64,000 nucleotides of DNA from Takakia lepidozioides (lineage: Eukaryota > Plantae > Bryophyta). Of the stretch, positions 689 to 64,000 are shown one piece after another. A model generated the notes under the pieces. That model was not told the origin of the DNA and made no database searches. It was given only the letters and a program-made list of their open reading frames with translations. Each line of letters starts with the position of its first letter. Positions within the stretch are counted from its first letter, which is position 1. The DNA is taken from positions 40,052,001-40,116,000 of the forward strand of contig CM060733.1 of the NCBI GenBank assembly GCA_030704615.1, read 5' to 3'. Position numbers and translations under genes: made by a program.

Positions 689-693
689 GAGAG

Positions 694-1445: not shown

Positions 1446-1476
1446 CATTGGTTAGTTTTGCTTATGGTATTGCTTG

Positions 1477-2130: not shown

Positions 2131-2187
2131 CAAATCCTTTATGCATGTCAAGCACATGAAGTAACACACTTTATTGATAGAGTACAA

Positions 2188-3037
2188 TCAAAACATTGGG
2201 GCACCTTTCAACTCCCATTGGTGTTCAATGAGGTCATTTCTCAATCTGTGGTATTTCTCAAAATTCTCAATTTCTAGAGTACCTAGACGATAAGATTCAA
2301 ACTGAGACCTCTGCGAATAGGCACTACTAGGTGTTCATCAAATTGGCCTTCAAAAGCAGTGTCTTGCTCGTCATCTATTATCATATTATGAAGTATGACA
2401 CATGCTAACATGATAGATTTGATAGTGTATATGTCCCACTGTCTCAAAGGGTTTTGTATGATTGAAAACCTGCTCTGTAGTACACCAAAAGCTCTCTCGA
2501 CGTCCTTTCTCACTGACTCCTGCATCATCGCAAAATATGCCATCTTTTGGTCTTGAGGCTCATAAATTGTCTGCACAAAAATGGACCAAGAGGGATATAT
2601 ACCATTTGCCAGGAGGTAATACCTCTTGTAAACATTGTCATTGACAGAGAAGGTGACATTCTCAGCCTCTCCTTTGAGCAAATTTGCAACCAACGGAGAG
2701 CGATCTTGAACGTTAACGTCATTGTTTCCGCCTGGCAACCCAAAGAAGGCGTGCCAGATCCAAAGATCCTGAGAGGCAATTGCCTCCAGCACAATGTTGC
2801 GGTTTCCATCTTTATCTTTATATTGGCCCTGCCAAGAAACAGGGCAGTTCTTCCAAACATAATGCATATAATCTAAAGAGGCAAACATACCGGGAAACCC
2901 TCGAGCAGTATTGATCCGCATTTGCCTTTGTATGTTTTGTGCAGTTGGTTGACGAAGGAATTCTTCCTCAAAACAGGCACGAACTGCATGCACAAATCTC
3001 TTCATAGCCTCCATAACAGTGGGATTCGCTCAACCTG
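2188..3037 (-). pseudogene. Harbinger DDE transposase, C-terminal half
   Basis: Motifs RGFPGMFASLDYMH, WIWHAFFGLPG.NND, YLLANGIYP (catalytic D changed to N) and RKDVERAFGVLQSRF. A frameshifted tail LRNDLIEHQW ends at 2188. Confidence 0.93.
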
Positions 3038-3610
3038 CAACGACGCAATGGCGTGAGCGCGCGAGTGTACGCTCACGCAAGAGTGACATGGCGTGAGCCT
3101 GCACCCACGCTGACGTGGCGGCAAATGATGACATGGCACTGTCCGTCATCTGCCACGTCAGCATTAACATGCGCTGCCTATAACCGAGGATGGTCCTATG
3201 ACCGTGGAATTAATGCAGGGAATCTTTCCTAAATAGAATCAAGACTACCATGAGGCCTACAATTGTAGCATCCAACATTGTGCAATTACAAATGCTTGTT
3301 TCACTTTTACAATTACGAGGACGAGAAAATATCCTCACAAAGTGTGCGCCATAAAGGCTGCCACGGGAAGACCTTCCTCCCTCCTCAAATAACAATGAGA
3401 GTTAGGATCATCTTCAAAAGATGATTGTAGTGCATAGCGACAGCAAGACATGTAGACTTCGAACGGTGCAATGACAAATGTGCTTTTAAAAGTTGCCACT
3501 CAGAGCTCACTCCGTATAGTTGGAGGCCATATCATTGCACCGCCGACGAATTGATGTGAATTACACATTTCAAATCATGGTCGTCCACATACCACATTGC
3601 ATAGTTGATG

Positions 3611-6600
3611 CTACCCATGTGTTGTATCCCGCTGCAATAGAGTAGCAACCTCGTTGAAACTCATAGTGGCCTGGTGAATGAAGTTGTCACGTTTGGGATC
3701 GCAAACCATCATCTTCAAAAATATGAAACACAAATGTTTGCAGGGTATGAATTTACCTCTCTTGCCCAAACTGGTTGATAGCATATTCACAAAATCGGGA
3801 CATGTGCAATTGGGGAAATTGGAAACCGTGATGTCGTAGGTCCTGTCATGAACAGCAGATGTGGAAGTGATGATTGTGAATACCCGACCATATCCTGGAT
3901 CGGGTACTTCCGTGGTGCTTCCAACATGAGCTTGGAGCATTCTTGCGGACTCTACTTTGTCAAAGTGTTCAGCGGTTGGAGGGAAACGCCGAACGAGCTT
4001 TCCATCTCGTTTGGTTGGCCACAAGTCAGGATTTGCCGGGGGGACCCGGGAGGATGCAGAAGTAGTAGCACATGCATGGAGTTGGGGTTGTCTCGCAAGG
4101 GAAAAACCCGCCTCCTCCAACATTTCAATCTCCTGAAAGCTGAGACGTGTTCCCACCTTGACGGGCCAAACGGTTGGAGGAGATGGCTTCATCACTATGG
4201 AAGGACGCACAGTTCCATGCACACATCTGGCACAATCATCTGCGCAGAACCAGAACTTATGGTTCTTGGCTTATGGTTGACCGTATGGACGCATCAAACC
4301 CGTGAAAGTCGAAGCAGGAGTTCGGGCACCACCTCTGGATATAGATGAAGTGCACTTCTCGAAATTAGTTGCCCTGATCGCTGTACATTTCACACGAGAC
4401 CCTACACTTGTGCGTTCTATGTGCCAAACGTGGTCGGGGCATTCGGACTCAAGCACATCAAGGGGGTTGTTTCTCTCCTGCACCATTTCAGTGGCACTGT
4501 TTGATGCTGGAGCTTGCCGTCGTGTTGGAGGTTCCTCCACAATGGAGGTTCCGGACATGGAGCTGTCATGCAGGGGAACACGAGGCTTCAAGAAGTTATC
4601 ACGGTCTGCCCTGTGCGAATCGGAATCCGAACCAGGTGGAGTGTTCAATTTCCTCTTACAGGAGCCGAATCTCTCCTCCCCTTCAAGATGTGGAACTTTA
4701 GAAACAAGTGGCGTTCCCTGGGCATACATGCTCACCGCCCATGCTATCTTGATTTGATCCCCAGATCTGTTTGCAGCACGCAATATCAACTCCCATTTGT
4801 CCGGACCCTTGCCACCAACCCCACCTCGTAAGAAATCACGGTATCGGGTTTGTTGTTGCAAGGCACGTATCAAATCATCTGTTGTTGCCACATACAAATC
4901 CCGACCTCGTTTCCCAGACTGCTGCAACCATGCGTTGTGCACAGTTTCTGCCAAATTGCAAGATGACATGTCCGCCATTTCCTCAATGGACATGTTCTGC
5001 AAAGTGCAGAACCACACTTCAAAACAGTGAACAGAAAACAACATAAAGAAAGCGAGGATACAATAAAATGGAAAGTAAATGAATGAATAAAGCAAGAAAT
5101 ATAAGCCTCGTACCACTGGCATGGCTGCTCCCCACTGTCTATACCGGAAGTGCCAAAATGCCAGCCAATCTTCCAATGCTCTCATACTCTCAAGTGATGC
5201 AGCTCCAGAAGAGAACCACCAGCACGAATTGTTTGGAACAAAGTGTCTGCCTCCTTCATTGTTCTAGCATCTTTGTACTATTTGCACAATTTACGGTGCT
5301 GAGTCTGCATCTCTGGTTTGATGTCCGACTTTGTATGTTTTTCCAGAGATTGTGTCCAATGGAATAGACATGTACGCTCTCTTCCTCGCATTGGCACTTT
5401 TGGGTCGCCCGATCCGAAGACAATACGAACAGCATTGAAATTTGCTGGAGCACTATCCGCCATGAAACCTGCAAAATTTGGAGATGGCAGCCCATGACAC
5501 GTATCAGGGAATTCCACATGAGCTTCTGGGATTCCGTATCTTCGGATTGCATGTCACAAACTGCAATTGTCATAACTCGTTGGTACACTGGATCGTAGAC
5601 ATGACAAGCCATTGTCGTCCAATCCTTCACTCGTTTCACATGATCAAACATAAGAAAACAGTTCTGCAAGTCCCCAGTCTTCTGCATCCGCTTCACGAGG
5701 CTAATCCCACTGCCCTCCCCAACAGTCGACATTTTGAAAAGAAAAATTTGATGACACCTTGACCTGGGAATACATTGTCCTGGATGTAATCGTACTTGCT
5801 CACTCGTTTCAACTCCAAAATGTTGTCTATGTAGCCTCTGATACCAGAGCCCATTCTTAATGCATTGATCTGATGCCGAATGTTAGGTGAACTCAAAGTG
5901 GAGAAATGATCCATGACCAGGTCCAATACTGCACCGTCAAGTTTAGTCCCCACAGAATCCCCTTCACTCAAAATATGGCTTTCCAAGAAGGACTTGCTTG
6001 CGCCAAGAGCAATTGCAGATGTTGTTGCGGATGGGTTTCTCTCGAACTCCTGTTTAATCAACCTCGATACTGTCTCAATACTCTCCATGTAATCCCCCTT
6101 CGAGACAGGATGGTTATGGAATCCGAAATGCACACAAGCTCTTGTCATTGTTTTCAAACGGTGGACAACATAGTACATTCTTGCTCCACAGAGCGCCAAG
6201 CAGGATGACACAAGTTTGCAGAATTTGCAGACGGAAGTGTTTGCCGATGGTGGGGCAGTCCCAGGCTGAAATGGATTTTCCACCAGACCCTCCCATTCGC
6301 TTTGATTATGAACCCCAGACTGAAGAAAATGTCTGCAATTCAAATTATCACACCTAAGGTGTCCATTGCAAACTGTTCTCCTGAAAACAAGCTTGTCATC
6401 ATTCTGAATATTAGATGTTTTTGTTCTGCACCACGGGTGCCCGTCGTGTTTCTTGTCCATTCCATGCATCATGATTGTTACACCTCCAACTCGCGGAGGA
6501 GGAGGCAGTTCGAATAGGATATCGCCATCAAAAGTCTCTGGCAAGAACTTCACAGGCACCTGCTTCAGAGATTCCCAATCAATTCCTCGCAACTCACTTT

Positions 6601-7114
6601 TGAATCCAGCCATTCCTCCCATCGCCCGTAATTTTGGAATGACACTACAAATTTCTTCTTCATCAACTTCTCCAACCACAGTAGGAAGGATTGGATTTGA
6701 AATTTCACTTATGTCACCATCGGACGAATCCGAAAGCTCAACGATTGGAGTGGAGGACGTCTGTTCTTTTTTCACCACCACCTCCCTCTTGTCTTCAACG
6801 ACCGAAGCAGCAGTCCCGGACGTCACATATGACCCAAGGGACTTTCGCCGAGGCTCTCCAAGTACTCTGTATCAACCAGGGCGCACTCTCCACTGGCTGA
6901 TATGAGCCGTCTTATCACGGTTTTGGAAAGAGTATTTCAACAACTTCCCTTTTAAATCGTACACCTCTTTCTCCAAAAAGATGGAGCCATTCTGAAGCTG
7001 AAAACGGGTAGCCAAGACATGTTCCAGAACAATTGCAAATCCATTGTCAAGGACTTCCTGGGAGAACGGCACTGGTTTGTCGTCAGAGAAGAACTCCGCT
7101 TCAGAGGAAGCCAT
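3611..7114 (-). pseudogene. Mutator-type transposase: WRKY/GCM-like Zn DNA-binding domain, MULE DDE core and SWIM finger (stops and frameshifts)
   Basis: DGHPW...CNGHLRC...C...CKFC...C...HFGFHNHP (WRKY-GCM-like). FLMFDHVKR (D1), FMADSA (D2), CLFHWTQS (MULE CxxH) and CNLAETVHN (E). CTCPDF...PCKHL (SWIM). Probable intron ~4995-5115. TGA at 6872 corresponds to CGA in copy 2. Confidence 0.88.
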
Positions 7115-7996
7115 CTTCCTTCCTCGCGTACGTTGATACCTTGCTATCGCAGACCTTCAGTGTAAATCGGTTTACTGATGTCTCCAGAACACAGTTGAAG
7201 AATGAGCATAGAATATTGCGGAAGAAGCTCAGACGACGACTGTGCATATTTTGTTATTCATTCCAGATATGCAGCCGTCCATTTTAATTACTTTTCTTGT
7301 GGGCCCAGTGGTCAGAGTATCCCTAGGAGCAATGTCGGCAGCTGTTAAACTGTTAATCAGAACCTCATCAATAAACACAATAACAAGCCGACTTCCTGGA
7401 AGCATACCATAGGATCTGAGGGTGGGATTGCAGATTAAGTAAATGTATCTTTATACTACTACCAATGATCATGCGCACCTGGAAAATTCAATATGGTGAT
7501 CGTTTTTATTCTTAATACTTGAAAAAAAACACGACCGCCAGTTTTGTGAAACGAACGTGGGGTTGGCTAACAAGGATGACCGTGTATGATATCCCAAAAT
7601 TTGTCATCAAACTCTCGTTCATTTACATATATTTGTCTAAGATTGTGCGCCAAGATTTCTGGGATTTGCTGTTATTTTTAAATATTGAAATAAAGAACAC
7701 GCCGTTTATTTTGGGCGACACACGTCAGACATCGATAACTGAATACGAACAGCTGTACACTAATTGCTGGCATGCGCACTAATAAGGAAACGACTATGTG
7801 TAACGGTCATGCGAGAGGGAATTTGATGCTTCTAGAGACAAGCAACAACGCACGCAATCCCGCAAGAAATCGGGAGTCACTTCGTTTTTCTACTTTTCGC
7901 GCTTAGAGGGAGAGTGGTAGTCAAGCTGGAATACGAAAGAGAAGAAAGTCTCTTTATTTTACTTCCCTTAGATAGAGACGCAGTGCAAGAGAGTAA
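7115..7996. promoter_or_regulatory. Putative bidirectional promoter/5'UTR region between the transposase and the cargo gene
   Basis: ~880 bp between the divergent ATGs at 7114 (-) and 7997 (+); largely conserved in copy 2 (61571-62541). The assignment is positional only. Confidence 0.5.
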
Positions 7997-10900
7997 ATGA
8001 CGAGGCGTCGTTTGCTGGAGAACACAGGGCCAAGGCAGCAGGTGAACGCGGAGACTGATTCACAAGAGCAGACCGAGACTGAGGCAACGGCTGTGACACA
8101 GTTGGCGATAACAGTGCGCATTGGAAACCAGCCTGTGGATGCAGAGATGACTCGCAGGGAAACTGAAGGAGGTGGAAGTACGAGGAACGCTGAACCGGGA
8201 GAAGGTCCAGAAACCCTAGAGCAGACAGAAATTCCAGCAGATGTGAGAGGGAAGAGAAAAGCTGCAGAAGGGGATCCAATTTCAAAACCTAAGAAGGCGC
8301 CAGTAAGTTTTCTCTAACTTACATTTCATTGTTGAAGATCTGCTTAGAGATTGAGTGGAATGTCCCAGAAAGGGATTGTCGCTACCGACCATCACCATGA
8401 AACAACGGTGATTTGCTTTATTAAGGGTTTACCGCACAATGAGTGGGTGACTGACGGTACCGTCATTAACCGTTGTTCAGATCATACAGTCTGTCTGATT
8501 GCCTTTCAAGCAGTCCTTCCTCTTCCCTTCTTTAGCAGGAACATGTGATTGAAGTCTACTGAATTGCAAGCGTCGTTAACGCCATTCGATTCTCCTCATG
8601 AGATTTATTTACCTATGTGTTTGAAGAGAGAGTGAGGGTCGGCATATTCAGTCATAATGTATTGCAATGCATTTTCTTTGTATGAGGTTGAACAGATAGA
8701 GAAGTGGAAAGGCGGTACCGCCAATCAAAGATTTGAAGACCATACTGTAGATTCAGGTAGAGTATCGATTGGAAAGTACTCTCGACATAGACATGAAACC
8801 GTGAATGCTTGCGACGGTAATCACAATGGAGTCAATCTAAATAATCTGCACTTACTGTCCGCCCTAAACTATACTGAATGTCGTTGCCGCCAATCACTTA
8901 CACATATATGTCATTACACAACACCGATCCGGCAGGTCCTTATCTTTTGTGATTGTCGTTAACGCCGTTCGCTATCGCTCTCGCTTTTGTTTTGAATTCG
9001 GCAGGATCAGCTTTGCTTGTGTAGATGGTTCTGAATTTGTTTCACACCATTTATTGTGAGTTTCTTCGAGACAGAGTGATGGTCTTTACCGCCGTTCACT
9101 ATTTGCAAATTACTCAGTCAGATTTGAATGACATCGTGCAGAAAACTGTGAGGTCCAAGCCTACAGGATCAGAGGGGAAAGGATCTGGAGATGGGGACGA
9201 GTCTGGAAAAAGCTCAGAGAATACAGATGAAGCAGATGAATCTGAAGTGCACTACCTTGACAAGGTGAAAGAACTCATGTCATTCCAGAAGGTAAACTCT
9301 CAGGAGGTTACAAGGGACATGCTCGTATTTGGAGGGCGTCTGGACATCCCTTTGTGCTGGATGATATCTATGCCTGTTGTCCGTCCACCTCTTTCCCATG
9401 ACATAACAAAATTGGAGAGTGATTTTGTGCATGGATACAGACTTGGTGCACAAGTTTTTTATGTGTCACTGACGGATATAAATGGGAAAAACACATTAGT
9501 GTCTCCAGAGATCAGTGATAACTGGGATGAGTGCTGGAAAGATGCCAATGAGGAGTTCGAACTGGGCCTCATGATGAGAAAGAACACCCAGCAATTCTGC
9601 AACCACATGTTCTACGTCTGGGACGGCAACCACCGATTGCTGGCATAGATGGGATACATCCAGAAACACCATGCGAAAGACAAAGACAAGCATGTTGCTG
9701 TGGAGGCAATGGTTTTGGATCCAGGAAACGACATCGCTAGGCTTCTTACAGCTATGCACGACATGAACAAGTAAGTCATCCTAGAGATTTCATTCCCTCT
9801 GTAGTGTCTTGTTAATCCCAAAAAAACAGTGTTAAGGAATGCAATGTTTCCAATGTTTTTGCAGATCGACAGAGAAATCGCATGTGACAACAAGCTTGGT
9901 CCACACACTATTCCGAATTCAGAGGATTGGTCTGATGAAGCTGGATGATTTTCGGACAGTACTCCCCCCCAATATAATCAAGAAGTGCGAAACAAGAAGA
10001 GCTGCAGGTACTTGGTATTCTTTGACTCGAGAGGCGTTTCTGGAGTACATGTATGCGATAAGCCCGAGTCTGTACTCAGTTTACTTTTCGAATACATGTT
10101 TGTAGTCCCTTCGGTGCTAATCACTATTTGAATCAATGCAGCAAGAACTGGCAGAGGCAGCTGAGAAGGGAAAATCCGAATATTACCGCACTACACCAGA
10201 TGAACTAAAGACATCAAAGGGTGTAGAAGCAGCAATAAAAAAGGAGTTTGAAATGCGAAGAACCAAATTGATGTCCGCCTTCAGAAAGCAACTTAGAATA
10301 GTAGATCCTGGACTTGGTTTTGAGTTTCTTCAGCAGATCAAATCTCACTATGACAAGCATGTGTATCCGGAGATGTAGCAGGAGAAATTGCACCGGCTGG
10401 CCATATCCATGGTCGACCCACAAACAAAAATAAGGTGGCTGGAGATATGGAACTTAGATCAGACAGTAAAGGACTTGAATCAGTTCCCAAAGAGCACCAT
10501 ACAGCCTGGCACAAAGGTGGAAGGAATCAGTGATTTGGTGTTTGATAACTGGCTCCACAAGGCTACATTTTGGAGTCAGGTGTGTATTCAAATAAGTCGT
10601 TTTCTTTTCTTCAATTATGTGATAAGTATCTTATTTGCAATACTGACAAATATACAATTTGCAGCTCGAAAAGCGTGCCGTCATTGTGCTGGATCATACT
10701 TTGAAAGACTTGAACATTTCGATTGTTTCCCCTCCCTAAATGTCATTGGAGGCATACATAAGGAAGTGGAGAGGTCTCACCTGGAGATACTGTTTTTTCC
10801 GGGAGTTCTCCAAAGATGGTAACATTTTACGGTCCAACGACTTTGACAGTCAGGTTGGAGGAGAGTGGGCCATGATGCGAGTTGTGTACAGGTGCAATAT

Positions 10901-13900
10901 CATACTGGAAACTCTACTGCACTTTTTGGGAAATAATTTGGTTTCATAAGGATTGTAATCATAGATCCAAATTGAATGTCGTTGACAACATTCACTACTG
11001 TGTCTGAGTCATTCTTAAGCGAGAATTTGAATTCACCTGGATTAGGAGCTTAGGGTGTAATTATAGTGTCCCTGATTAGAATTGATAATGTCCCTGAATG
11101 GCGTTGACGACATTCATATCCAGAGTTGTTGAGAGGTCCTCAGAGTTATGTAAGTTTTTGTAATGTCCATAAAGTTTACAGTGAGGGTTCTTCACTTCAG
11201 TTTGCTGAATGTCAATGCAGACATTCAGTTGTTCTGCATTGCTTTTGCCTCTTGCGAGAAATCTTGAGGCTTGATTAGCTGTGTTATCAGAGATCCAAAG
11301 TGAATGTCGTTGACGACATTCACTTCTATGTCTGTGTCATTCACCAGCGACAATTTGAATTTACATGGATTGGGAGCTAATTAATTGGTTCCTTGTTCGC
11401 CATTTTGTGAATGGCGTTGACGCCATTCACATCCAGTGTTATTATGAGGTCAATGTTATGTTCGTTATGAATGTCCATTGAGTTTTTGGGGAGGGTTCCT
11501 TAGTCGAGTTTCTGATTTCCATCCAATGATTTTGCCTCTTTTGAGAAATCATTAGGCTTGATTAGCAGTGTATTCACAAATCCAAAGTGAATGTCGTTGA
11601 CGACATTCACTTCTATGTCTGTGTCATTCCAAAGCGAGAGTTTGCATTCACGTGGATTAGGGTGTATTTACAGTATCATTGAATGGAATGTTTTGAATGG
11701 CGTTGACGACATTCACATCCGGAGCTGTCGTGTGGTCCTGAAAGGTCCTTGGAGCATTTCTCAGAGCCATTTCATTCCATGTTTTTTTCATTTTGTGCTA
11801 CTTGCATCTTATTCACTTCGCGCTTTGGTGGGTTGGGATTTATTTCCTGTTTAACAGGTACACGAAATATGTGCTTATGGAAGGAAATCACCTGAGCGGT
11901 ATTCCAGACTATCTTGACATGTGGTCGGACCCTGCAAACGATCCAACCATGTATACTGCAGGGATATTGAAGGACTGGAGTCCTTCTCACTTCAGAGACT
12001 GTGGCTGGTACCTTGACTGCCCACCGGAGCACACGACCTTTCAAGAACAACATATGAAATATTTGAACAATAATGCTGAGATGTTGGCGCCTCTGACTGA
12101 CGAAGAGTACCAAAGAAACATAGCAACATTGGCTGCCAAGGAGCCTGATGCTCAGGGAACGCCGCAGAAGGGAAAGAAGGCGGGCCGCAAACCAAAAGAC
12201 AAGGCTCTTGATGTCATAGCCATCTCACCAGCAAAGCCAAAGGACAAAGACAAGTCCAAAGAGAAGGAAAAGGACAAGGGGAAGGAGAAAGAAAAGGAGA
12301 TGGAGAGTGGGCAGGACTTCACTGCTGGAAGATATACCCGCACAGTTCAGTGCGTGTTCGATGCCAAGCCACACCCTTCCCGTTCTGATTCGGCAGGAGA
12401 GATTAAAATTGTCAATGAGGGTTGGCTGTCGATGATGCAGAGTCGAAAGAGAGGATACACTGGGGTGTCTTCGCCTACCTGGGACAACATAATCTCATTC
12501 CTCAATCTGGTGAGAATTCTTGTTTCTTTCCTTTTTCTCTGAAAGTTTCATTGGCAGTATTTCAGTCTGGTTCTTTGAAAACATTCTTGCCATCGTTCTT
12601 AAAAAAAACATGTCTGTTGCAGGTGAGCATAGGTCCCACCTTCGTGTGCGGTGTGCAGAAAATATATGCGGCTGACATTGTCATTCTCGACATCCCGGAT
12701 GGCCATGCTGTGCCAGAAGTTCTTCCAAAGGGCAAGACGCCAGGCTGGAACAAATTCGAGGACAACTACTGGAGTTGGGTGTTCGGGTTCTGTAATAATT
12801 TCCTCTCTGATGCAGGGACACTTCTGTTTTTTCAGTCATGTGACAAAGATAGTCGTCGGGCATTGGCATCATACCTGAAGTCTTCAGGGTTTGAAGTTTT
12901 GCGCACATGGAATTGTGTGAATAGCCTCTACCTTGTGAAAGGGGGTTTCCCTGATCAACTGGTATGCCGTCTCCCTTCTGCTTGTGCTTTCATGATGAGT
13001 TTCAATGTTCTCTGCAGCTCTACTCTATAAGAATCTGTCATGATCGACACCGATCATCACCGATTCGTGATAAAAATGATTGTTTTGTGCTTGAGTTTTG
13101 AATAGCCGATGGACACACTTCCACTATAGATTGTGTTTATCACACTAACCTGCTATCTTTGGCAGACGAGGATGTTCGAGGCGATCTGCCTGCGGAGGAT
13201 TCGCACCTCCAAGACATCATTCTCCATCCGCAGCTTTGAGATTTCTGACCAGGGTTGTTTCGTCAACCCCCCCTATGAGCCGCATGTCGATGACATTTTG
13301 TACAACTTCATGCAGTCCAGTCAGACTCTAAAAAGACCAGATGGCACTCCCTGGAGAGGTGCAAAGGAAAAATCCCCAACGTTCATGCAAATACTGCTGG
13401 AGTCATACAGTCACCACTCTGCACGGGTTGATCTTTCTGTGTCCACATGTTCGTTCTCTCTCTTCCGAATTGATTTTCTTTCACCAGTTCCATCTGCTTA
13501 AATCCCCCCCACCAAACTGTTCATGTCCTCCTGTCTGGTGCAAGAGCAACTTACTATGCATGCAAGGCAGGCGGAAGAAGCCTTTTTGGCATGGAGGGCC
13601 TCTACAACACAGTGCTCCTCCCCCTTTTGTCTGGCTCCACTTCAGGCACACAGACTGATCGGATTCAAATTCAAAATGATGACGATCCCGAAGATAAGCA
13701 GGTCGACAACGACTTTTCTTGTGAGTAAGTGCTAAACCCACTTTGGGAGTCATACTCAATTTCTCAATAACATCAAAGTTACAGTAATAACTTTTTCAGG
13801 CTGTCTTTCAGGAAAGACAGCGGTGGATCTTCAGGAGATACAGTCATTTGTGGCGAGTCTGTTTTCGACAGCCCCCTTTCCAATTTTCTGCTTCCTGATT

Positions 13901-14058
13901 ATGCCGAAGCAATGGCACTTCACGCGGCCGAGTCCCTATTCCCTGAATTTTTACTGCCTAGCCGTAGGTGTAGCCAGCGTAGATCCGGAGTTCTTAAATA
14001 CTTAGACTTAGATGCAGAGGAAGTGGGGATACATTGTACTGACTCTGAGTTAGACTGA
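7997..14058 (+). pseudogene. Multi-exon cargo gene: ParB/Srx-like domain + unknown helical region + KE-rich linker + beta-class N6A/N4C DNA methyltransferase-like domain
   Basis: Approximate exons: 7997-8302, 9142-9770, 9865-10056, 10142-10579, 10665-10891, 11858-12509, 12623-12961, 13166-13448, 13544-13720, 13812-14058. ParB-like motifs VRPP...FYVWDGNHRLLA. MTase motifs ADIVILDIPDG, FLSDAGTLLFF, SGFEVLRTW, AKEKSP..MQILLES.S...RV(V)DLSVST(G) and, in the next exon, ATY.ACKA.GRSLFGME. In-frame stops at 9646 and 10376; donor at 10057 mutated. Confidence 0.8.
10960..11730. repeat. Intronic ~290-330-bp tandem triplication containing seven ~24-28-bp palindromes
   Basis: Units begin (G)ATCCAAA.TGAATG near 10964, 11292 and 11580. 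Palindromes at 10972, 11094, 11205, 11298, 11406, 11585 and 11693. Confidence 0.9.
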
Positions 14059-14179
14059 ACTATATTTTTTTACTATTCTGTTTCATCCTCTTTGGAAAAC
14101 GTTGAATCCCCTTCCTCCACCGTAGTTGTTCCTTTGGAAAGAAAAATAATCAAAGAATCAACTACCATTTAAATTGCAA

Positions 14180-14545
14180 TATGTATGAATCCATCTCACA
14201 AACCTCCCTCACTCTTGTCATATCCATTGTGCTTTCATCTACAGTGTATTCATGCGTGCTCCATTCATGAATGTTTTCCTTTGTTCAACATCCATTGTAC
14301 ATTCATCCTCTGTACTCTTTAATCCACCCCACAAACCTTCCACACTCATGTCACATATGTTGTGCATTCGTCTAAAGTTTTAGTCATGCATCTTCCTGTC
14401 ATGAATGTTTGTCATTGCTCAACATCCATTATACATTCATCCATTTGACTCTTATCCATCCCTCATTCATCCATCTACATTCATTTTTTACACTCATCCA
14501 TCTGTTGATCATCCAACTGTACATTCATCCATCCTTTATTCAATG
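14180..14545. repeat. Degenerate CATCCAT/TTCATC-rich subterminal repeat region of the MULE
   Basis: Dense, strand-biased CATCC/TTCAT motifs; mirrored at 54880-55240 in copy 2. Confidence 0.7.
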
Positions 14546-14755
14546 CTTTTTACTATGTCGTCCAGTTGTTTCCGCGGTAAAGGGTGCCAATCTGCGGGAA
14601 TACAGTCCACTTCTTCCTGGGCGCGTGGTGACGCGGTCTTCAAGTGTGATGACGTGGAGTGAGCCCCGTGATGTGGCATTGGCGCAAGGTGTCGTGGCGT
14701 GAGCGCAGTTGCGCTCACGCGCTCACGTGACAAGGCTCACGCCGAGGCATCCCTG

Positions 14756-15200
14756 CTCAACCTGCAGTACTCATCAACAGCATCGGCAGCTACTCCATAA
14801 GCGAGCATCCTTAATGCCACTGTGCATTTTTGGATACTCGACAAACCCAACAATTCACACCCATCTACCCTCTGCTTAAAATAAAGATCGTAGGCCACAA
14901 CAGAGTGCATAATCTTCAAGAAAAGATCCCTCCGTATCCTGAACGGACGGCGAAATGTCCTCTCATCGTACACAGGTTATTCAGAGAAGTAATCTCTTCA
15001 AATCCTCTCATGTCCAACGTGCCTCTCTCTATCAACATTAGCTGCTTTCCCTCGTCTCGATCCACGCCTAGCTTTAACCGTGCGCGAAGAATGATCACAA
15101 CTAGCAGTAGCAATAACACCCATGATGAAATCCTCATCATCATCTTCTAGCTCCCTCCTAATCACAGCTTGAATATCAATTCAGTTTGCACCTCCAAGCA
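14756..15200 (-). pseudogene. Harbinger DDE transposase, N-terminal half
   Basis: DYFSE*PVYDERTFRR...QKCTVALRMLAYGVAADAVDEYCRLS joins across the insertion to ES..VMEAMKRF near 3030. In-frame stops are present. Confidence 0.92.
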
Positions 15201-42532: not shown

Positions 42533-42539
42533 TGGCAGG

Positions 42540-53825: not shown

Positions 53826-54650
53826 TCACGAGTTTGCATATTTGCTGTCAGCTAAGTCTGCCATCTTAAGATTAATTTCTGCTAGCATAGTTTTGTCATT
53901 AACAAAATGACGACGTTGGGCCCAATTTTGAATAACATGAGGCAAGCCAAGGAGAAAGTAGGTCTTGACCATATGATCACGTTCTGCTAGATCAATGATA
54001 TTTTCTGCAGCAGCAAATTTGAGATCCATGTAATACTTCCACAAGGACTCTCCTGGCTGGTAAGTCCTGGAGCTCAATTTGGTGAAGCAGTCCAAGGGTC
54101 GTTCAGGAGGCTTGAACAGGGTTTTAGCCCATTCCACAAGGGATGCCCAAATGAGATGGGGTCATCCATGATGGCTGCATGCAACAAGTCACGAGCTGGT
54201 CCCTTCATGCTCATTCTAAAGATTGCCATTTTAAAATTCTCAGGCACACATTCACATTAGCAATCACTTCAAACATATGGAGATATCTATCAAAGTCCTC
54301 TCTCATGGTGTATTCTGGATAGGGCTGGGTAGTGAGCTGAGGAAGCAAATGACATGACAGACTATGATTCATGTGACCAGGCTCAGCAGATCCATGGGCC
54401 GGGCAGCAGTGAGTCATAGCCTAAAGTCTGATTAGTGGTATTATTCATAGCATGGACCCCACTAGCAACCGGGATATAGTTGTTACTCATAACATTAGAG
54501 GGACCTTGATATGACAAAGATGGCAGACTGGGTGGCAACACTGTCATGCCCACTGGGGGAACATGTAGTGTAGGCCTCGACTGAACAGCCTGACTGATCA
54601 TTGCAGCTTGGTTGGGAGCCACCCCACTCATTGTGTGAATGGGTGACATG
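53826..54650 (-). pseudogene. Ty3/Gypsy gag remnant, interrupted by MULE copy 2
   Basis: EDFDRYLHMFEVIA, QPGESLWKYYMDLK and VKTYFLLGLP, preceded by a Pro/Ser-rich stretch. Confidence 0.7.
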
Positions 54651-55363
54651 CAGGGATGCCTCGGCGTGAGCCTAGTCGCGTGAGCGCAACTGTGCTCACG
54701 CCACGTCACCTTGCGCCAACGCCACATCACGGGGCTCACTCCACGTCATCGCGCTTGAAGGCCCCGTCAGCACGCGCCAAGGAAGAAATGGAGTATATTC
54801 CCGCGGAAGGGCACAATTCACCGCGGAAACAAGCTGGACGACATAATAAAAAGACGTGGTCAATCCCACCTGAAAGCAACAAATGAATGAAGGATGGATG
54901 AATGTAGAGTGGATGATAAACAGATGGATGAGTGCGAAAAATGAAAGTAGATGGATGAATGTGGGATGGATAATAGTAAAATGGATGAATGTATAATGGA
55001 TGTTGAATAATGGAAAACATTCATGACTGGAGGATGCATGAATACTCTGTAGATGAATGCACAATGTATATGACATGAGTGTGGTAGGTTTGTGGGGTGG
55101 ATTACAGAGTACAGTGGATGAATGTATACTTGATGTTTAATAAAGGAAAACATTCATGAATGGAGCACGCATGAATGCACAGTAGATGAATGCACAATGG
55201 ATATGACAAGAGTGAGTGGGGTTTGTGGGATGGATTCATACATATTGCCATTTTAATGAAAGTGGATTCTTTTTTCTTTTTTTTCTGCCGGAACAACTAC
55301 AGTGGAGTAAGGGGATTCAATGTTTTCCGAAGAGGATGAAACAAAACATTAAAAGAACAAAGT

Positions 55364-58300
55364 TCAGTCTGACTCAAAGTCAGTACAATGTATCCCCGCA
55401 TCCTCTGCATCTAAGTCTAAGTATTGAAGAACTCCGGATCTACGCTGGCTACACCTACGGCCGGGCAATAAAAAGTCAGGGAATAGAGACTCGGCCGCAT
55501 GAAGTGCCATTGCTTCGGCATACACAGGAAGCAGAAAATTGGAAAGGGGGCTGTCAAAAACAGGCTCGTCACAAATGGGGGTATCTCCTGAAGATCCATT
55601 GTTGCCTTTCCTACAAGTCACAGCCCGAAAAAAGTTATTACTATAAATTTGATGTCCGAGAAATTGAGATGGCTCCCAAAATGGGTTTAGGACTTACTCA
55701 CATGAAAAGTCGTTGTCGACCTGCTTATCCTCGGGATCGTCATCATTTCGGATTTGAATCCTCTCAGTCTATGTGCCTGAAGTGGAGCCAAACAATAGGG
55801 GGAGGAGCACTATCTTGTAAAGGTCAGAATCACCCTCCATGCTAAAAAGGCTTCTTCCGCTTGCCTTGCATGCATGGTAAGTTGCTCCTGCACCAAACAG
55901 GAGGACATGAACAGGTTGGGGGGGGGGGGGATTTAAGAAGATGAAACTGGTGAAAGAAAATCAATTTGGAAGGGAGAGAACGAACCTGTGGACACAGAAA
56001 GATCGACCACCCGTGCAGAATGGTGGCTGCATGACTCCAGCAGTATCTGCATGAACGTTGGGGTTTTTTTCCTTTGCACCTCTCCAGGGAGTGCCATCTG
56101 GTCTCTTGAGAGTCTGACTGGACTGCATGAAGCTGTACAAAATGTCATCGACATGCGGCTCATACGGGGGGTTGACGAAACAACCCTGGTCAGAAATCTC
56201 AAAGCTGCGGACGGAGGATGGTGTCTTTGAGGTGCGAATCCTCCGCAGGCAGATCGCCTCGAACATCCTCGTCTGCCAAAGACTGCAAGTTAGGGTGGTA
56301 AATACAAACTATAGTGGAAGTTTACACACTGGAAATTCAAAACAAATGCATACAACAATCTGTTTTGTCACGAATCTGTCATGATCGGTGTCGATCATTA
56401 CACATTCTTCTATAGTGGAGCTGCAGAGAACATTGAAACGCAGCATAAAAGCACAAGAAGAAGGGAGACGACAAACTAGCTGACCCGGACAACCCCCTTT
56501 CACAAGGTATAGGCTGTTCACACAATTCCATGTGCGCAAAACTTCAAACCCAGAGGACTTCAGGTATGATGCCAAGACCCGACGACTATCTTTGTCACAT
56601 GATTGAAAAAGCAGAAGTGTCCCTGCATCATAGAGGAAATTATTGCAAAACCCCAACACCCAACTCCAGTAGTTGTCATCGAATTTGTTCCAGCTTGGCG
56701 TCTTGCCCTTCAGAAGAACTTCTGGCACAGCCTGGCCGTCCGGGATGTCGAGAATGACAATGTCAGCCGCAAATGTTTTCTGCACACCGCACATGAAGGT
56801 GGGACCAGTGCTCACCTTCAACATACATGTCAAATTTTAGAACGAAGACAAGAATGTTTTCAAAGAACCAAACTTTAAGGCAGCAAATGACACTTACAGA
56901 TGCAAAGGAAAGAAAATCAAATTGTCACCAGATTAAGGAATGAGATCATCCCAGGTAGGCGAAGGCACCCCAGTGTATCCTCTCTTTCGACTCTGCATCA
57001 TCGCCAGCCATCCCTCATTGACAATCTTAATCTCGCCTGCCAAATATGCACGGGAATGGTGTGGCTTGGCATCGAACACGCACTGAATTGTGCGGGTATA
57101 CCTTCCAGCAGTGAAGTCCTTCTCACTCTCTTTTTCCATCTCCCTTTCTGTTTCTTTCTCCTTCCCCTTGTCCTTTTTCTTCTCCTTGTCCTTGGACTTG
57201 TCTTTGTCCTTTGGCTTTGCTGGTGACCTGGCTATGACATTAGGAGCCTTGTCTTTTGGTATGCGCCCCACCTTCTTGCCTTTCTGCGTCGTTTCCTGAG
57301 CATCAGGCTTCTTGGTAGCCAATGTTGCTATGTTTCTTTGGTACTCCTCGTCATTCAGAGGCGCCAGCATCTCAGCATTATTGTTCAAATATTTCATGTC
57401 CTGCTCTTGAAAGGTCGTGTGCTCAGGTGGGCAGTCTAGGTACCAACCACAGTCTCTGAAGTGAGAAGGACTCCAGTCCTTCAATATCCCTATAGTGTAC
57501 ATGGTTGGATCGTTTGCAGGGTCCGACCACATGTCAAGATAGTTTGGAATACCGCTGAGGTGATTTCCATCCATAAGCACATATTTCGTGTACCTGTGAA
57601 ACACGAGACAAAACACAACCCACCAAAGCGCGAAGTGAGTAAGATGCCAGTAGCACAGAATGAAAAAGGAGCTCTCAGGAGCTCACAACAGCTCTGGATG
57701 TGAATGTCGTCAACGACATTCACAATATTCCATTCAAGGACACTGCAAACACACCCTAAGTTCCTAATCCGGGTAAATACAATCTCTGGCTTTGGAAGGA
57801 CACAGACATAGGAGTGAATGTCGGCAATGACATTCACTTTGGATCGTTGATTACAACGATTTCTCACAAGAGGCAACAACATTGCGAGGAAAGTGAATAT
57901 CGGCAACGACATTCAGAAACCTCGAGTGAGGAACACTCACCAAAATGTCAACGGAACATATAAAATGTACAAAAAATCTCTGGAGCTCACAACAGCTCTG
58001 GATGTGAATGTCGTCAACGCCATTCACAAAATTCCATTCAAGGACACTGCAAACACACACTAAGTTGCTAATCCAGGTGAATGCAATCTCTAGGTTTGGA
58101 AGGACACAGACATAGAAGTGAATGTCGGCACCGACATTCACTTTGGATCTGTGATTACATTGCTAACAAAGTCTAAAAAATTTCTCAGTAGGACATTGCA
58201 CCTGTAGACAACTCGTATCATGGCCCACTCTCCCCCAACCTGACTGTCAAAGTCGTTGGACCGCAAAATGTTACCGTCCTTGGAGAACTCTCGGAAAAAA

Positions 58301-61300
58301 CAGTATCTCCAGGTGAGACCTCTCCACTTCCTTATGTATGCCTCCAATGTCATTTGAGGCGGGGAAACAATTGAAATGTTCAAGTCCTTCAAAGTTTGCT
58401 CGAGCACAATGGTGGCGCGCTTCTCTAGCTGCAAATGGTACATTTGTCAGTTTTGCAAATAAAGTACTCATCACATTCATGAAGTCAACAAAAATGGAAT
58501 TTCTTTGAATACATATCTGACTCCAAAATGTAGCCTTGTGAAGCCAGTTGTCAAACACAATGTCACTGATTCCTTCCACCTTTGTGCCAGGCTGTATAGT
58601 GTTCTTTGGGAACTGATTCAAGTCCTTCACTATCTGATCTGAGTTCCAAATCTCCAGCCACCTTATTTTGGTTTGGGGGTCGACCATGGAGATGGCCAGC
58701 CGGTGCAATTTCTCTTGCTGCATCTCCGGGTGCACATGCTTGTCATAGTGAGATTTGATCTGCAGAAGGAACTCAGCACCAAGGCCACGATCTACTATTC
58801 TAAGCTGCTTTCCGAAGGCGACATCAGTTTGGTTCTGCGGATTTCATACTCCTTCTTTATTGTTGCTTCCACACCCTTTGATGTCATAAGTTCCTCTGTT
58901 GTAGTGCGGTAGTATTCGGATTTCCCCTTCTCAGCTGCCTCTGCTAGCTCTTGCTGCATTGATCAAAATATGGATGAGTACAAAACGAAATACAAACATG
59001 TATTCAGAAATACAAGTGAGTACAGGCTCGGCCTTACCGCATACATGTACTCCAGAAACGTCTCTCGAGTCAAAGAATACCAAGTGCCTGCAGCTCTTCC
59101 TGTTTCGCACTTCTTGATTATATCGGGGTGGAGTACTGTGCGAAAATCATCCAGCTTCATCAGACCAATCCTCTGAATTCGGAACAGTGTGTGGACCAAG
59201 CTTGTTGTCACATGCGATTTCTCTGTCGATCTGCAATAAGATTGGAAACAATGCATTGGTAAACATCGTTTTTCGGTGGGATTAACAAGACATTGGAGAG
59301 GCAATGGAGTCTCTAGGATGACTTACTTGTTCACGTCGTGCATAGCTGTCAGAAGCCTAGCGATGTCGTTTCCAGGATCCAAAACCATTGCCTCTACAAC
59401 AACATGCTTGTCTTTCTCTTTCTCATGATGTTTCTAAATGTATCCCATCTATGCCAGCAAATCGGTGGTTGCCGTTCCAAACGTAGAACATGTGATTGCA
59501 GAATTGCTGGGTGTTTCTTCCCATCATGAGGCCCAGCTCGAACTCCTCATTAACATCCCAGCACTCATCCCAGGTATCTCTGATACACTAATGTGCTTTT
59601 CCCATTTGTAACCGTTAGTGACACATAAAAAACTTGTGCACCAAGCACAAGTCTGTATCCATGCACGAAATCAGTTTCCAATTTTGTTATGTCATGGGAA
59701 AGAGGGGGACGCACAACAGGCATAGATATCATCCGGCATAGTGGGATGTCCAGACGCCCTCCAGAGACGAGCATGTCCCTAATAATCTCCCGAGAGTTTA
59801 CCTTCTGGAATGACATGAGTTCTTTCACCTTGTCAAGGTAGTGCACTTCAGGTTCATCTGCTTCATTGCTATTCTCAGAGCTCTTGCCAGACTCGTTCCC
59901 ATCTCCAGAACCTTTTGCCTCTGTTCTTGTCTGCTTGGACTTCACAGTTTTCTGCACGATGCCATTCCAATCTGTCAGTGAATAATGTGCAAATAGTGAA
60001 CGTCCGTACCGACCATCACTCTGTCTCCTCTCAAATCACAGTGAATGGCGGCACCGACATTCACAACAATCTACAAAACCAAAGCTGATCCAGACGAATG
60101 CAAACCAAAACAATATGACTACATAGTGATGCAAATGCATTGTCGTTAACGCCGTCCGCTAATGCTCAGAACCTCAGTGTACATGTTTGCCCATAAACAT
60201 GCTGAGGTTCTGAGCATTAGCAAACGGCGTTAACGACAATGCATTTGACATTGCATTTGAAGGACCTGCTGGATCGGTTTGGTGCAATGAAATATATGTC
60301 TAAGTGATTGGCGGCACCGACACTCAGTCTAGTTTAGGGCAGAAATTGAGTGCAGATAAGTCAGAGAGACTCCATTGTGATGATCGTCACAAACAATCAC
60401 TGTTTCTTGTCTATCTCGAACGTACTTTCCAATCGATACTCTACATGAATCTATAGTATGGTCGCCAAAAAAGTGATTGGCGGTACCGCCATTCCACTTC
60501 CCTAATCTGTTCAACCTGAAACATAGAAAATGCAATGCAAGACTAACTAACTGAATATGCCGACCATTACTCTACCTCCACGCACACATGTACATAATGC
60601 TCATGAGGAGAATCGAATGGCGTTAACGACAATCGCACTACACTAGAATCAAATGCCGACAATCACATGTTCCTGCTACAGAATGAAAGAGAAGGAGTGT
60701 TTGAAAGGCAATCAGACTGACTCTACGATCTGAAGAATAGTGAATGGCAGTACCGCCAGTCACAAACTGCTGGTGTGGAAAACCATAAATAGATGAGTAC
60801 AAATCAAATCAACGTGGCTTCATAGTGAATGGCGATACCGACAGTCATAAACTGCAGGTGTGGAAAACCATAAACAGAGGAGTACAAAGCAAATCAAGAT
60901 GGCTTCATAGTGAATGGCGGTACCACCAGTCACAAACTGCTGGTGTGGAAAACCATAAACAGAGGAGTACAAAGCAAATCAACATGGCTTCATAGTGAAT
61001 GGCACTACCACCAGTCACGAACTGCTGGTGTGGAAAACCATAAACAGAGGAGTACAAAGCAAATCAACATGGCTTCATAGTGAATGGCGGTACCACCAGT
61101 CACAAACTGCTGGTGTGGAAAACCATAAACAAAAGAGTACAAAGCAAATCAACATGGCTTCATAATGATGGTCGGTACCGACCATCACTTTCTAGGACAT
61201 TGCACTCACTCTCTTCGTAGATCTTTAAACAGGAAATTGAAGGTAGAGAACACTTACTGGCGCCTTCTTAGGTTTTGAATTTGGATCCCTTTCTGCAGCT

Positions 61301-61570
61301 TTCCTCTTCCCTTTCTCATCTGCTGGAATTTCTGTCTGCTCTAGGGTTTGTAGACCTTCTCCCGGATCAGCGTTCCCCGGACTTCCACCTCCTTCAGTTT
61401 CCCTGCGAATCAGCTCTACTTCCACAGTCTAGTTTCCAACGCTCACTGTTCTCTCTGACTGTGTGACAGGATACAGCTGCAGCCTCATTCTCGGTCTGCT
61501 CTTGTGTTGCACTCTCCGCGTTCACCTGCTGCCTTGGCCCTGTGTTCTCCATCAAGCGGCGCCTCGTCAT
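55364..61570 (-). pseudogene. ParB-like + amino-MTase cargo gene, copy 2
   Basis: Same exon structure as copy 1. Motifs FAADIVILDIPDG and ESCSHHSARVVDLSVST|GATYHACKASGRSLFSMEGDSDLY; last exon ...YLDLDAEDAG. Contains frameshifts and stops. Confidence 0.8.
60738..61188. repeat. 85-bp tandem repeat, ~5.3 copies, each with an imperfect palindrome GTGAATGGCGGTACC[AG]CCAGTCAC
   Basis: Units start at 60738, 60823, 60908, 60993, 61078 and 61163, in intron 1 of cargo copy 2. Confidence 0.95.
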
Positions 61571-62541
61571 TTGCTCTCTTGCTCTGAGTCTCTCTCTAAG
61601 GGAAGTAAAATAGAGTGTCTTCCTTCTCTTTCGAATCGTAGAAGAAACCCTCTCCAGCTTGACTACCTCTCTCCCTCTAAGTGCGGAAACTTGAAAGACA
61701 AAGTGAGTTGCGTGCGTGCATTGGGGATTGCCTCTAGAAGCATCGGATTCCCTGTCGCATGACCGTTACACAAATGTCGCTCCCTTATTAGTGCACCTGC
61801 CAGCCATTAGTGGACAGCTGTTCGTCTGCAATGTAGTAATCGATGTCTGACGTGTGTCGCCCAAAATGAACGGCGTGTCATTTATTTGAACGGTTTCAAT
61901 AATTGAAAATAACAGCGACAGATAATATAAATGAATACTACATTGCATATAAACAACGACTGCTCAGCCTAAAACCAATGGTTTGACTGCTCTGCCTAAA
62001 CCAAAATGCCTATGTCATCAGAACCTTGCCACCGTGGAATAAAATATATGGGGCCATCTTACGAACAATCTCAGACAAATAAATGTAAATGAACGAGTGT
62101 TTGATGACATATTTTTGGATATCATACACATTCATTCTTGTAATCCAACCCCATGTACGTTTGATAGTTTGGACTTTCCAGGTGCGCATGATCATTGGTA
62201 CTAGTATAAAGATGCATTTACTTCATCTATCCCACCCTCACATCCTTTGGCACACTTCCGAGAAGTCGGCTGGTTATTATGTTTATTGATGAGGTTCTGA
62301 ATAAAAGTTTAACAGCTACCGAAATTGCTCCTAGGGATACTCTGTCTACAGGGGCCACAAAAAAAGTAATTAAAATGGACGGCTGCATGTCTGGAAGGAA
62401 TAACAGAATGTGCACAATCATCGTGTGAGCTTTCTTCGCGATATTCTCTGCTCATTCTTCAACAGTGTACTGGAGACCTCAGTCAACAGATTTCACTGAA
62501 GAACTGCGATAGCAAGGCATCTTCGTACTAGAGGAGGGAAG

Positions 62542-63866
62542 ATGGCTTCCTCTTAAGCAGAGTTCTTCTCTGACGACTACCAGTGCCGTTCTCCAAGGAA
62601 GCCCTTGACAATGGATTCGCAATTGTCTTGGAACATATCTTGGCTACCCGGTTTGAGCTTCAGAATGGCTCCATCTTTTTGGAGAAAGAGGTGTACGATT
62701 TGGAAGGGAAGTTGTTGAAATACTCTTTCCAAAACCGTGATGAGACGGCTCATGTCAGCCAGTGGAGAGTGCGCCCTGGTCGATACAGAGTACTTGGAGA
62801 GCCTCGGCGGAAGTCCCTTGGATCATATGTGACGCCCGGGACTGCTGCTTCAGTCGCTGAAGACAAGAAGGAGGTGGTGGTGAAAAAGAGCAGACGTCTT
62901 CCACTCCAATCGTTGAGCTTTCGGATTCGTCCGATGATGACATAAGTGAAATTCCAAATTCAGACCTTCATACTGTAGTTGGGGAAGCGGATAAAGATTG
63001 CATTTGTAGTGTCATTCCAAAACTGCGGGCGATGGGAGGAATGGCAGGTTTCAAAAGTGAGTTGCGAGGAATTCATTGGGAATCTTTGAAGCAGGTGCCT
63101 GTGAATTTCCTACCAGAGACTTTTGATGGCGATATCCTATTCGAGCTGCCTCTTCCTCCGCGAGTTGGAGGTGTCACAATCATGATGCATGGAATGGACA
63201 AGAAACACGACGGGGCACCCGTGGTGCAGAACAAAAACATCCAATATTCAAAATGATGACAAGCTTGTTTTCAGGAGAACAGTTTGCAATGGACACCTTA
63301 GGTGTGATAATTTGAATTGCAGACACTTTCTTCAGTCTGGGGTTCACAATCAAAGCGAGTGGGAGGGTCTGGCGGAAAATCCATTTAAGCCTGGGACTGC
63401 CCCTCCACCGGCAAACACTTTCGTTTGTAAATTCTGCAAACTTGTGCCATCCTGCCTGGAGCTGTGCGGAGCAAGAATGTACTATGTTGTCCACCGTTTG
63501 AAAACAATGACAAGAGCTTGTGTGCATTTCGGTTTCCATAACCATCCTGTCTCGAAGGGGGATTATAGGGAGAGTGTTGAGACAATATCGAGGTTCATTA
63601 AACAGGAGTACGAGAGAAACCCATCCGCAACAACATCTGCAATTGCTCTTAGCGCAAGCAAGTCCTTCTTGGAAAGCCATATTTTGAGTGAAGGGGATTC
63701 TGTGGGGACTAAACTTGGTGGTGCTGCATTGGACCTGGTCATGGATCATATCTCCATTTTGAGTTCACCTAATATTCGGCATCAGATCAATGCATTGAGA
63801 ATGGGCTCTGGGATCAGAGGCTACATAGACAACATTTTGGAATTGAAACGACTGAGCAAGTACGAC
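62542..63866 (+). pseudogene. MULE transposase copy 2, N-terminal WRKY/GCM-like part only
   Basis: Homologous to 7114->5790. Early TAA and frameshifts; truncated before the DDE core. Confidence 0.9.
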
Positions 63867-64000
63867 TCTAGATGTGAAATGACCATGCTATGAAATGTCC
63901 AATTTGCAACATTGTCATGGAAATTCAATTCAAATCAATTCGTTTGCAACATCGTCGGCGGTGCAATGATATGGCGTCCCTTATCCCTCCATTATGCTTC

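Follow-up and report, generated by a model that had tools for sequence, protein, structure and literature searches.

Palindromes in two introns of a ParB-methylase-like transposon gene of Takakia lepidozioides as candidate self-recognition sites

We analysed a stretch of 64,000 nucleotides of Takakia lepidozioides (assembly GCA_030704615.1, contig CM060733.1, positions 40,052,001 to 40,116,000), hereafter the window, which holds two copies of a Mutator-like transposon. Besides its transposase, the element encodes a cargo gene whose product is predicted to join a ParB fold to an amino-methylase-like domain, and two introns of this gene carry many copies of a 22-bp palindrome. This is a genuine cis-element under constraint, and the transposon system to which it belongs is apparently undescribed. 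We suggest that these palindromes are self-recognition sites for the element's own cargo protein, a reading to which we give a probability of about 0.55. We favor it because the sites occur only in the two cargo-gene introns, their halves mix without compensation, their geometry is kept in distant loci, and the ends of the element carry a repeat other than the intron motif.

A spaced palindrome within two cargo-gene introns

The palindrome has the consensus TGAATG[T/G]CG[T/G]-NN-[A/C]CG[A/C]CATTCA. The pattern TGAATGKCGKNNMCGMCATTCA, which was built from the same sites that it counts, has 23 matches in the window with at most three mismatches (copy 1 of the transposon has 10 of them and copy 2 has 13), compared to a mean of 0.01 and a maximum of 1 in 100 shuffled windows, and all 23 lie within the two cargo-gene introns. 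A two-arm matrix with a 2-nt spacer, trained on 34 hand-picked sites, gave 35 hits, 34 of them inside both introns of both copies; the sole hit elsewhere is weak (at 23342). Spacers of 0, 1, 3, and 4 nt returned 2, 4, 2, and 0 weak hits, respectively. An initial annotation of the window, made from the letters alone, had claimed a constant spacing and had noticed no motif outside the element; both statements hold, the latter within the 64 kb covered. The sites that it listed are also real: the perfect palindromes at 11298-11325 and 11585-11612 (13-bp arms) and at 11406-11431 (12-bp arms), the site at 11205-11228 with 9-bp arms and an N6 centre, the copy 2 site at 58116-58143 (13-bp arms; those at 57699 and 57813 are likewise perfect), and the degenerate intron-1 sites, which are those of Table 1 except 8802 and 9032. 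The one that it placed near 13037 has the geometry and is retained in copy 2, but it gives no matrix hit and is doubtful. Six additional copy 2 sites (60614-61187) had been missed, five of them in an 85-bp tandem array (5.3 units, 60737-61188), and an inverted duplication at 60132-60247 in the same intron created one additional site. We placed the intron limits by GT/AG signals and by homology. Some contig pieces of run X8, which we guess to be RNA, start within 2-5 bases of the predicted exon starts 10140, 11854, and 13168 and leave the motif introns without cover; neither observation was used as evidence. The exact motif was sought among viral contigs, and none was found there.

As the comparison of the two copies indicates, the palindromes are more conserved than the intron around them: 87% of site positions are identical (250/286) versus 78% in the remainder of the two introns (906/1159; p = 4e-4, with a selection bias that favors the sites), and the excess is also seen for intron B alone (p = 3e-4). 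Among the 40 of 60 intron-1 variants listed, at least six fall in palindromes. All four near-fixed differences of run X1 listed inside intron-1 sites lead toward the consensus; the two minority variants listed there are split, one leading toward it and one away. Family-majority bases restore four degenerate intron-1 sites. Since the near-fixed bases of the family are nearer to the consensus, part of the degeneracy is private decay of copy 1. Summed contig depth, which is not a copy number, is no higher over the motif introns than over the exons, and gives no hint of a small element present separately in high copy.

Compensating arm changes, which the initial annotation had described at two positions, are supported at only one of them. 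The innermost pair (T/A versus G/C) is distributed 11:1:4:14, with a nominal p = 5e-4 for sites that are non-independent. At the GTCG/GGCG position, the 34 sites comprise 7 G/G, 4 G/T, 10 T/G, 12 T/T, and 1 other (p = 0.46), and 16 of the 34 are non-pairing at another position of the arm. Neither is covariation across copies a general rule: the 13 orthologous site pairs show 3 two-sided changes that preserve pairing, 4 two-sided changes that do not, and 23 one-sided changes, with 12 mismatches retained unchanged. Given the free mixing of halves and the rarity of two-sided changes, DNA half-sites for a dimer fit better than an RNA hairpin. The palindrome consists of one degenerate half-site placed twice in two-fold symmetry, which we infer to be the pattern expected of a dimeric DNA-binding protein and not of a hairpin.

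A metagenome scan provided 19 loci that are 35-49% identical to the window in the ParB-encoding exon. In a tree with long-branch warnings they lie ~3.2 substitutions per site from the exon of the window, and their non-coding DNA fails to align with its introns (best E-value 0.028). Upstream of the ParB exon, CG-N4-CG palindromes are found in 8 of the 19 loci (10 sites in 11,964 bases), compared to 0.22 expected and at most 4 in 200 shuffles of this DNA; none occurs in the 28,702 bases that start at the exon, and other CG spacings upstream give 0-2 matches. With a relaxed pattern, 12 of the 19 loci have a site. The distant arms are mostly GTCTCGG-NN-CCGAGAC (GTTTCGG-NN-CCGAAAC in locus L004). 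Across 8 representatives, pairwise identity is 0.83 in the core and 0.30 in the flanks, both spacer bases being free, and in loci L011, L014, and L018 the palindromes recur within duplicated units. Judging from these alignments, a core of the type TCG[G/T]-NN-[C/A]CGA is kept across deep relatives, with outer arms that are lineage-specific. Small arm variants are left unsorted by the ParB-exon tree (both subclades have GTCT, and GTTT is found in L004 and L014), and we make no claim of co-evolution of arm and protein inside the distant clade. Locus L018 has a degraded divergent gene 5' of the cargo (201-1924, minus strand), which is dissimilar to the transposase of the window and has a weak RING-like match (E-value 0.12); in this locus the carrier of the cargo may be another one.

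The predicted cargo protein

The cargo gene is colinear with locus L001 and with P0174, a protein of 958 residues from Adiantum capillus-veneris, and its product is ordered as a ParB/Srx-fold domain, a helical middle domain, an amino-methylase-like domain, and an acidic tail. For the N-terminal domain, a ParB/Srx (ParB-CTPase) fold with an intact GxxR is predicted from structural models. The model of the exon has a predicted local confidence (pLDDT) of 93.7, and Foldseek ranks ParB, Noc, PadC, and Srx highest for it (best E-value 0.012, probability 1.00). A VIA fold search ranked KorB at Z 7.9 (root-mean-square deviation, rmsd, 2.5; 89 aligned) and PadC at Z 7.6; all eight of its rows with Z of at least 5 presumably belong to the ParB/Srx superfamily, to which we assigned them by name. 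A Pfam search of this exon gave no hit. With the exon as query (9244-9771) we obtained 468 relatives at E-value ≤0.001 (50%-identity representatives); G128, N129, and H130 are invariant over 39 aligned rows, and R comes next in nearly all rows shown. The named homologues of the cargo are from Adiantum ferns and the Atlas clusters are streptophyte; no relatives were found in a search of viral contigs, and PDB sequence searches returned nothing meaningful. The cargo gene is under purifying selection (ratio of nonsynonymous to synonymous substitution, dN/dS, 0.1-0.25): we measured 0.23 across 485 codons of copy 1 versus copy 2, 0.24-0.26 for the methylase exons between copies, and a median of 0.11 in the 27 of 55 ParB-exon pairs (11 distant loci) that are unsaturated.

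The middle domain of the fern homologue spans ~300 residues in the position that the helix-turn-helix occupies in ParB, and has an all-helical model (mean pLDDT 69.5); a basic helix ahead of a conserved hydrophobic-x-[N/D/H]P motif, picked by eye, is a candidate recognition helix. The C-terminal domain is predicted to be a beta-type amino-methylase domain of the phage ParB-N6/N4 type. Its catalytic motif precedes the S-adenosylmethionine (SAM) motif, the permuted (beta) order, in the window, L001, and P0174. The counterpart exon of L001 matches PF01555 below the cut-off (E-value 0.0034), and in PHROGs the L001 exons give weak methyltransferase matches only (E-value 0.067-0.23). The named families nearest to P0174 are phage ParB_N + N6_N4_Mtase fusions, with feature scores of 0.81-0.82 that serve as leads only, and the structure rows agree with these fusions (residues 609-883; TM 0.74 by target). 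A search for homologues of the first methylase exon among longer proteins found nothing. Canonical amino-methylases have a catalytic motif of the DPPY, SPPY, or NPPY type (PMC8885841); here the D and one P are retained, and an aromatic is present in 1 of 4 sequences. The canonical aromatic is missing in the other three, so this may be a methylase domain that is inactive or of an unusual type. A conserved acidic C-terminus of the type [Y/F][L/I]D[L/D]E follows an LPxY helix in the window (~14000-14022), in L001 (~4380-4402), and in the proteins P0173 and P0174; it is possibly a short partner-binding motif. No ParA partner was found in the element, whose sole genes are those of the transposase and the cargo.

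Possible readers of the palindromes

The geometry, location, conservation, and multiplication of the sites are observed, as is the selection on the cargo gene. On the self-recognition reading, the cargo protein would bind the palindromes as a dimer on double-stranded DNA and would in this way recognise the copies that belong to its family. The half-sites might be read by the helical middle domain or by the target-recognition part of the methylase, and nucleotide binding in the ParB domain could gate closure of the dimer or activate the second domain. Binding would lead to an escape from silencing or a self-marking specific to the element, as with VANC in VANDAL, or alternatively to self-repression of the cargo gene. 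Self-recognition had been proposed in the initial annotation, and the clustering in introns, the fixed spacing, the conservation, and the ParB-fold neighbour speak for it, while the compensatory covariation it invoked at GTCG/GGCG does not. A more elaborate scenario is unlikely, if worth stating: a phage ParB-methylase would have been taken over by a transposon family distributed through early land plants, which would have acquired a parS-like address of its own; the protein would be a nucleotide-gated clamp that loads at the intronic palindromes, spreads along the element, and writes a mark of bacterial type, N4-methylcytosine (4mC) or N6-methyladenine (6mA), or shields the element from host 5-methylcytosine (5mC), each family protecting no copies but its own.

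Several observations weigh against self-recognition. Seven of the 19 distant loci have no upstream site (their upstream sequence amounts to 2-483 bases), and all 19 form one clade, so that the comparison is one of two deep lineages. The excess conservation is not significant for intron 1 alone (150/176 in sites versus 529/662 in the rest, p = 0.13), and it is inflated overall, because the sites are non-independent through duplications and were chosen for matching. On the protein side, the catalytic position reads DIPD in the window, DYPE in L001, DLPT in P0174, and DVPF in P0058, and a Pfam search of the window's methylase exons hit no family. A helix-turn-helix was sought in the middle domain and none was recognised, the matches being generic helical ones (best Z 6.1); Foldseek alignments of this domain span whole ParB/Noc chains but with an rmsd of ~18 Å, and its Atlas leads (DUF6551, DndB) all score below 0.9. 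Finally, a phage ParB-like partner of a DNA-modifying enzyme is described as having no obvious DNA-binding domain and dispensable NTP residues (PMC13229309).

The palindromes could instead be bound by the transposase of the element through its zinc-finger domain, which would also activate its own copies. The element does encode a Mutator-like transposase, and the AtMu1 transposase alone binds its cognate sites and makes its family hypomethylated and active (bioRxiv 10.64898/2026.08.24.746577). In the same report, however, the family peaks are at terminal repeats, whereas here the ends have GCGTGAGC without the intron motif, and the palindromes lie 2.9-5.3 kb inside the element. In L018, the only distant locus with a long stretch of upstream sequence and thus a single case, the 5' gene is unlike the window transposase, yet four sites are present. 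We thus consider a transposase site quite unlikely. The palindromes might also be sites for a host transcription factor recruited by the element: inverted repeats of TGTCGG/TGTCTC are bound by auxin response factors, and CCGAC and GCCGCC are AP2/ERF cores. TGTC is present in 26 of the 68 halves from the window and in 19 of the 40 from the distant loci, and TGTCTC in 16 of the latter (the half-site table comprises the 30 relaxed matches minus 9 downstream and 1 poor upstream match), and an IR2 arrangement is reported to be enriched in auxin down-regulated genes (PMC7533888). Nevertheless, only 1 of 34 window sites has TGTCGG in both halves and 5 of 20 distant sites have TGTCTC in both; ARF1 needs a spacing of 7-8 and ARF5 of 5-9 bases (PMC7533888), while the registers here are 2 and 6 by lineage. 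The constant part is CG-N4-CG, with outer arms specific to each lineage, and host-factor sites seem to us very unlikely.

A role in RNA, as pre-mRNA hairpins for splicing control or as small-RNA precursors, would draw on the stems of 11-12 bp with 4-nt loops into which perfect sites fold, on the folding of intron B (z = -5.3), on an excess of G-U over A-C departures (15 to 6), and on the first spacer base, which is T in 34 of 34 sites on the sense strand. We judge it highly improbable. A G-U excess is also what CpG deamination would produce; 14 of the 34 sites have T-C or G-A in mid-stem, and 16 have a second non-pair. The mismatches kept identical between copies number 12, compared to only three changes both two-sided and paired; the sequence is conserved beyond pairing, the covarying pair falls at a loop position, and Rfam has no family above cut-off for the palindromes. 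Least probable of those considered is a neutral origin from a chance palindrome or a small-element relic, tandem-duplicated and symmetrised by template switching. Many sites are indeed duplicates, and the inverted duplication in copy 2 spans a site. However, the sequences next to the intron-1 sites are unrelated, we saw neither terminal repeats nor target duplications at the palindrome units, and CpG-bearing cores persist over a protein distance of ~3 substitutions per site, with flanks at background.

Self-recognition by the cargo protein would resemble VANDAL/VANC in layout and ParB/parS in parts; we do not class the system with either, as it has no ParA, no recognised helix-turn-helix, and no canonical catalytic motif. 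As in VANDAL, a Mutator-type element carries an accessory gene and short motifs that differ between families, lie in non-coding DNA such as introns, and are multiplied by tandem repeats (PMC5735166). VANC motifs are 8-9-nt non-palindromes (PMC5735166), unlike the 22-bp palindromes reported here, and the cargo differs in its predicted ParB fold and methylase-like domain, the likeness being one of layout. The 16-bp palindromes of ParB and Noc are recognised by two-fold dimers of these proteins (PMC7383237), and with ParB/parS, Noc/NBS, and KorB the system would have in common the ParB-CTPase fold with GxxR and multiple two-fold sites (PMC7383237; bioRxiv 10.1101/2025.10.10.680097). Multi-copy palindromes near the gene are a further likeness, the pairing of protein and site here being putative, and the half-site GGTTTCGG of L004 resembles parS (TGTTTCAC). 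In contrast to ParB/parS, the site here is 22 bp long with a free 2-nt spacer, a helix-turn-helix and ParA were not recognised, and the predicted protein has large inserts in the fold and a fused methylase, and is eukaryotic, intron-containing, and transposon-borne. As regards CTP binding, the dimer clamp, and sliding, specificity is reported to be unpredictable from sequence or AlphaFold3 (bioRxiv 10.1101/2025.10.10.680097).

Phage ParB_N-N6_N4_Mtase fusions (PF02195 + PF01555) have the same domain order as the cargo, which is about twice as long, with a helical middle of ~300 residues and an atypical catalytic motif; cis sites are undescribed for the phage proteins in the literature covered. 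Bdelloid N4CMT and a Marchantia 4mC methylase are also bacterial-type amino-methylases in eukaryotes, N4CMT being permuted; they are host genes, and N4CMT has SPPY and a chromodomain (PMC8885841), while the cargo is transposon-borne, ParB-fused, and without SPPY. The ParB-type helix-turn-helix fused to chlorophyte Dam belongs to a different family (PMC4738411). A literature search, with supplements and subscription journals outside its coverage, found no description of the element; a recent ParB survey names as the usual ParB-fold protein of eukaryotes sulfiredoxin, and the main text of the survey contains neither "transpos" nor "plant". Few transposon-encoded self-recognition systems have been worked out, all from flowering plants in the literature covered. 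How the effect of VANC spreads over kilobases was left open (PMC5735166); a ParB fold would supply a ready mechanism, loading at the site and sliding. With its natural arm variants, the protein-site pair could also yield orthogonal DNA-targeting modules for plants.

The element and its surroundings

Table 1. Coordinates of the element, its genes, and its palindromes in the window
Feature	Position	Strand	Remarks
Copy 1	3037..14756	.	11,720 bp; ends GCA...TGC; inserted in Harbinger nuclease gene (PF04827 on flank)
Left target-site duplication TCAACCT	3030..3036	+	7 bp; from sequence
Right target-site duplication TCAACCT	14757..14763	+	from sequence
Left subterminal GCGTGAGC/GCTCACGC repeats	3051..3099	.	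candidate transposase sites, unlike intron motif
Right subterminal GCGTGAGC/GCTCACGC repeats	14697..14743	.	copy 2 counterpart 54664-54702
Mutator-like transposase gene, broken	3611..7156	-	from translations
Cargo gene	7998..14058	+	~ten exons; divergent; broken in copy 1
Intron 1, copy 1	8303..9141	+	inferred GT..AG; 8-9 degenerate palindromes
Intron-1 palindromes, copy 1	8373, 8448, 8567, 8706, 8802 (weak), 8875, 8950, 9032, 9077		
Predicted ParB/Srx-fold exon with DGNHR (GxxR) box	9142..9771	+	stop 9646-9648 absent from family majority
Intron B, copy 1	10892..11857	+	7 palindromes in ~300-bp duplicated units
Intron B palindromes, copy 1	10973, 11095, 11206, 11301, 11408, 11588, 11694		
Methylase-like exons	12623..13722	+	DIPD, PGWN, PWRGAKEK, DLSVSTG-like SAM-motif position; permuted (beta) order
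Doubtful variant site ATGATCG-ACAC-CGATCAT	13040..13057	.	intron 7
Copy 2	54650..64000	-	~84% identical; internal deletion in transposase; runs past window end
Intron B, copy 2	57701..58140	-	5 palindromes
Intron 1, copy 2	59997..61187	-	14 palindromes

The flanking GC and GCA of copy 1 are also repeated, so the target duplication could formally reach 12 bp; the single visible end of copy 2 (54650) agrees with GCA...TGC ends and favors 7 bp. Mutator-like duplications are of 8-11 bp (PMC6446971), compared to our best reading of 7 bp from one full copy. An empty-site joint (3022>14755) is present in contigs of runs X1, X5, and X6 (3 of 4 runs), the junction at 3037 is present in run X1 contigs, and beside this left junction the window is one base longer than the empty-site contigs. 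The 27,579 run X1 contigs that lie on the element indicate a family of many variants; among the differences listed, two stops and a single damaged splice donor in copy 1 (9647, 10376, 10058) are absent from the run X1 majority. In the transposase we recognised by eye a WRKY-GCM1-like Cys/His zinc region, an acidic catalytic region with CLFH, and a C-terminal SWIM, which fits the order of WRKY-GCM1-type finger, DDE core, and SWIM typical of Mutator-like elements (PMC1702500). The SWIM match is below cut-off (E-value 0.02-0.04), and the MULE Pfam family had no hit among the transposase translations. A 134-bp duplicated unit 3' of the cargo gene (14188-14532 and 54883-55236) is rich in CATTCATCC, which has CATTCA in common with the outer palindrome arm, without the CG core.

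Copy 1 splits a Harbinger element into 44-3029 and 14764-15150, between whose genes lie tandem arrays of 180 and 172 bp (694-2082). An AT-rich unit (46270-47800 and 50298-51100) contains other palindromes, CTTAGGACTCCTTAGG...CCTAAGGAGTCCTAAG and CTTAGAGCGGCTCTAAG, in ~77-bp tandem arrays, possibly the end arrays of an unrelated element. Reading by eye, we further noted a protein-kinase-like exon (20992-21762), reverse transcriptase/endonuclease frames like those of a long interspersed element (LINE; 38053-45183), and, adjoining the end of copy 2, an integrase-like region of a long terminal repeat (LTR) retroelement (52158-53558).

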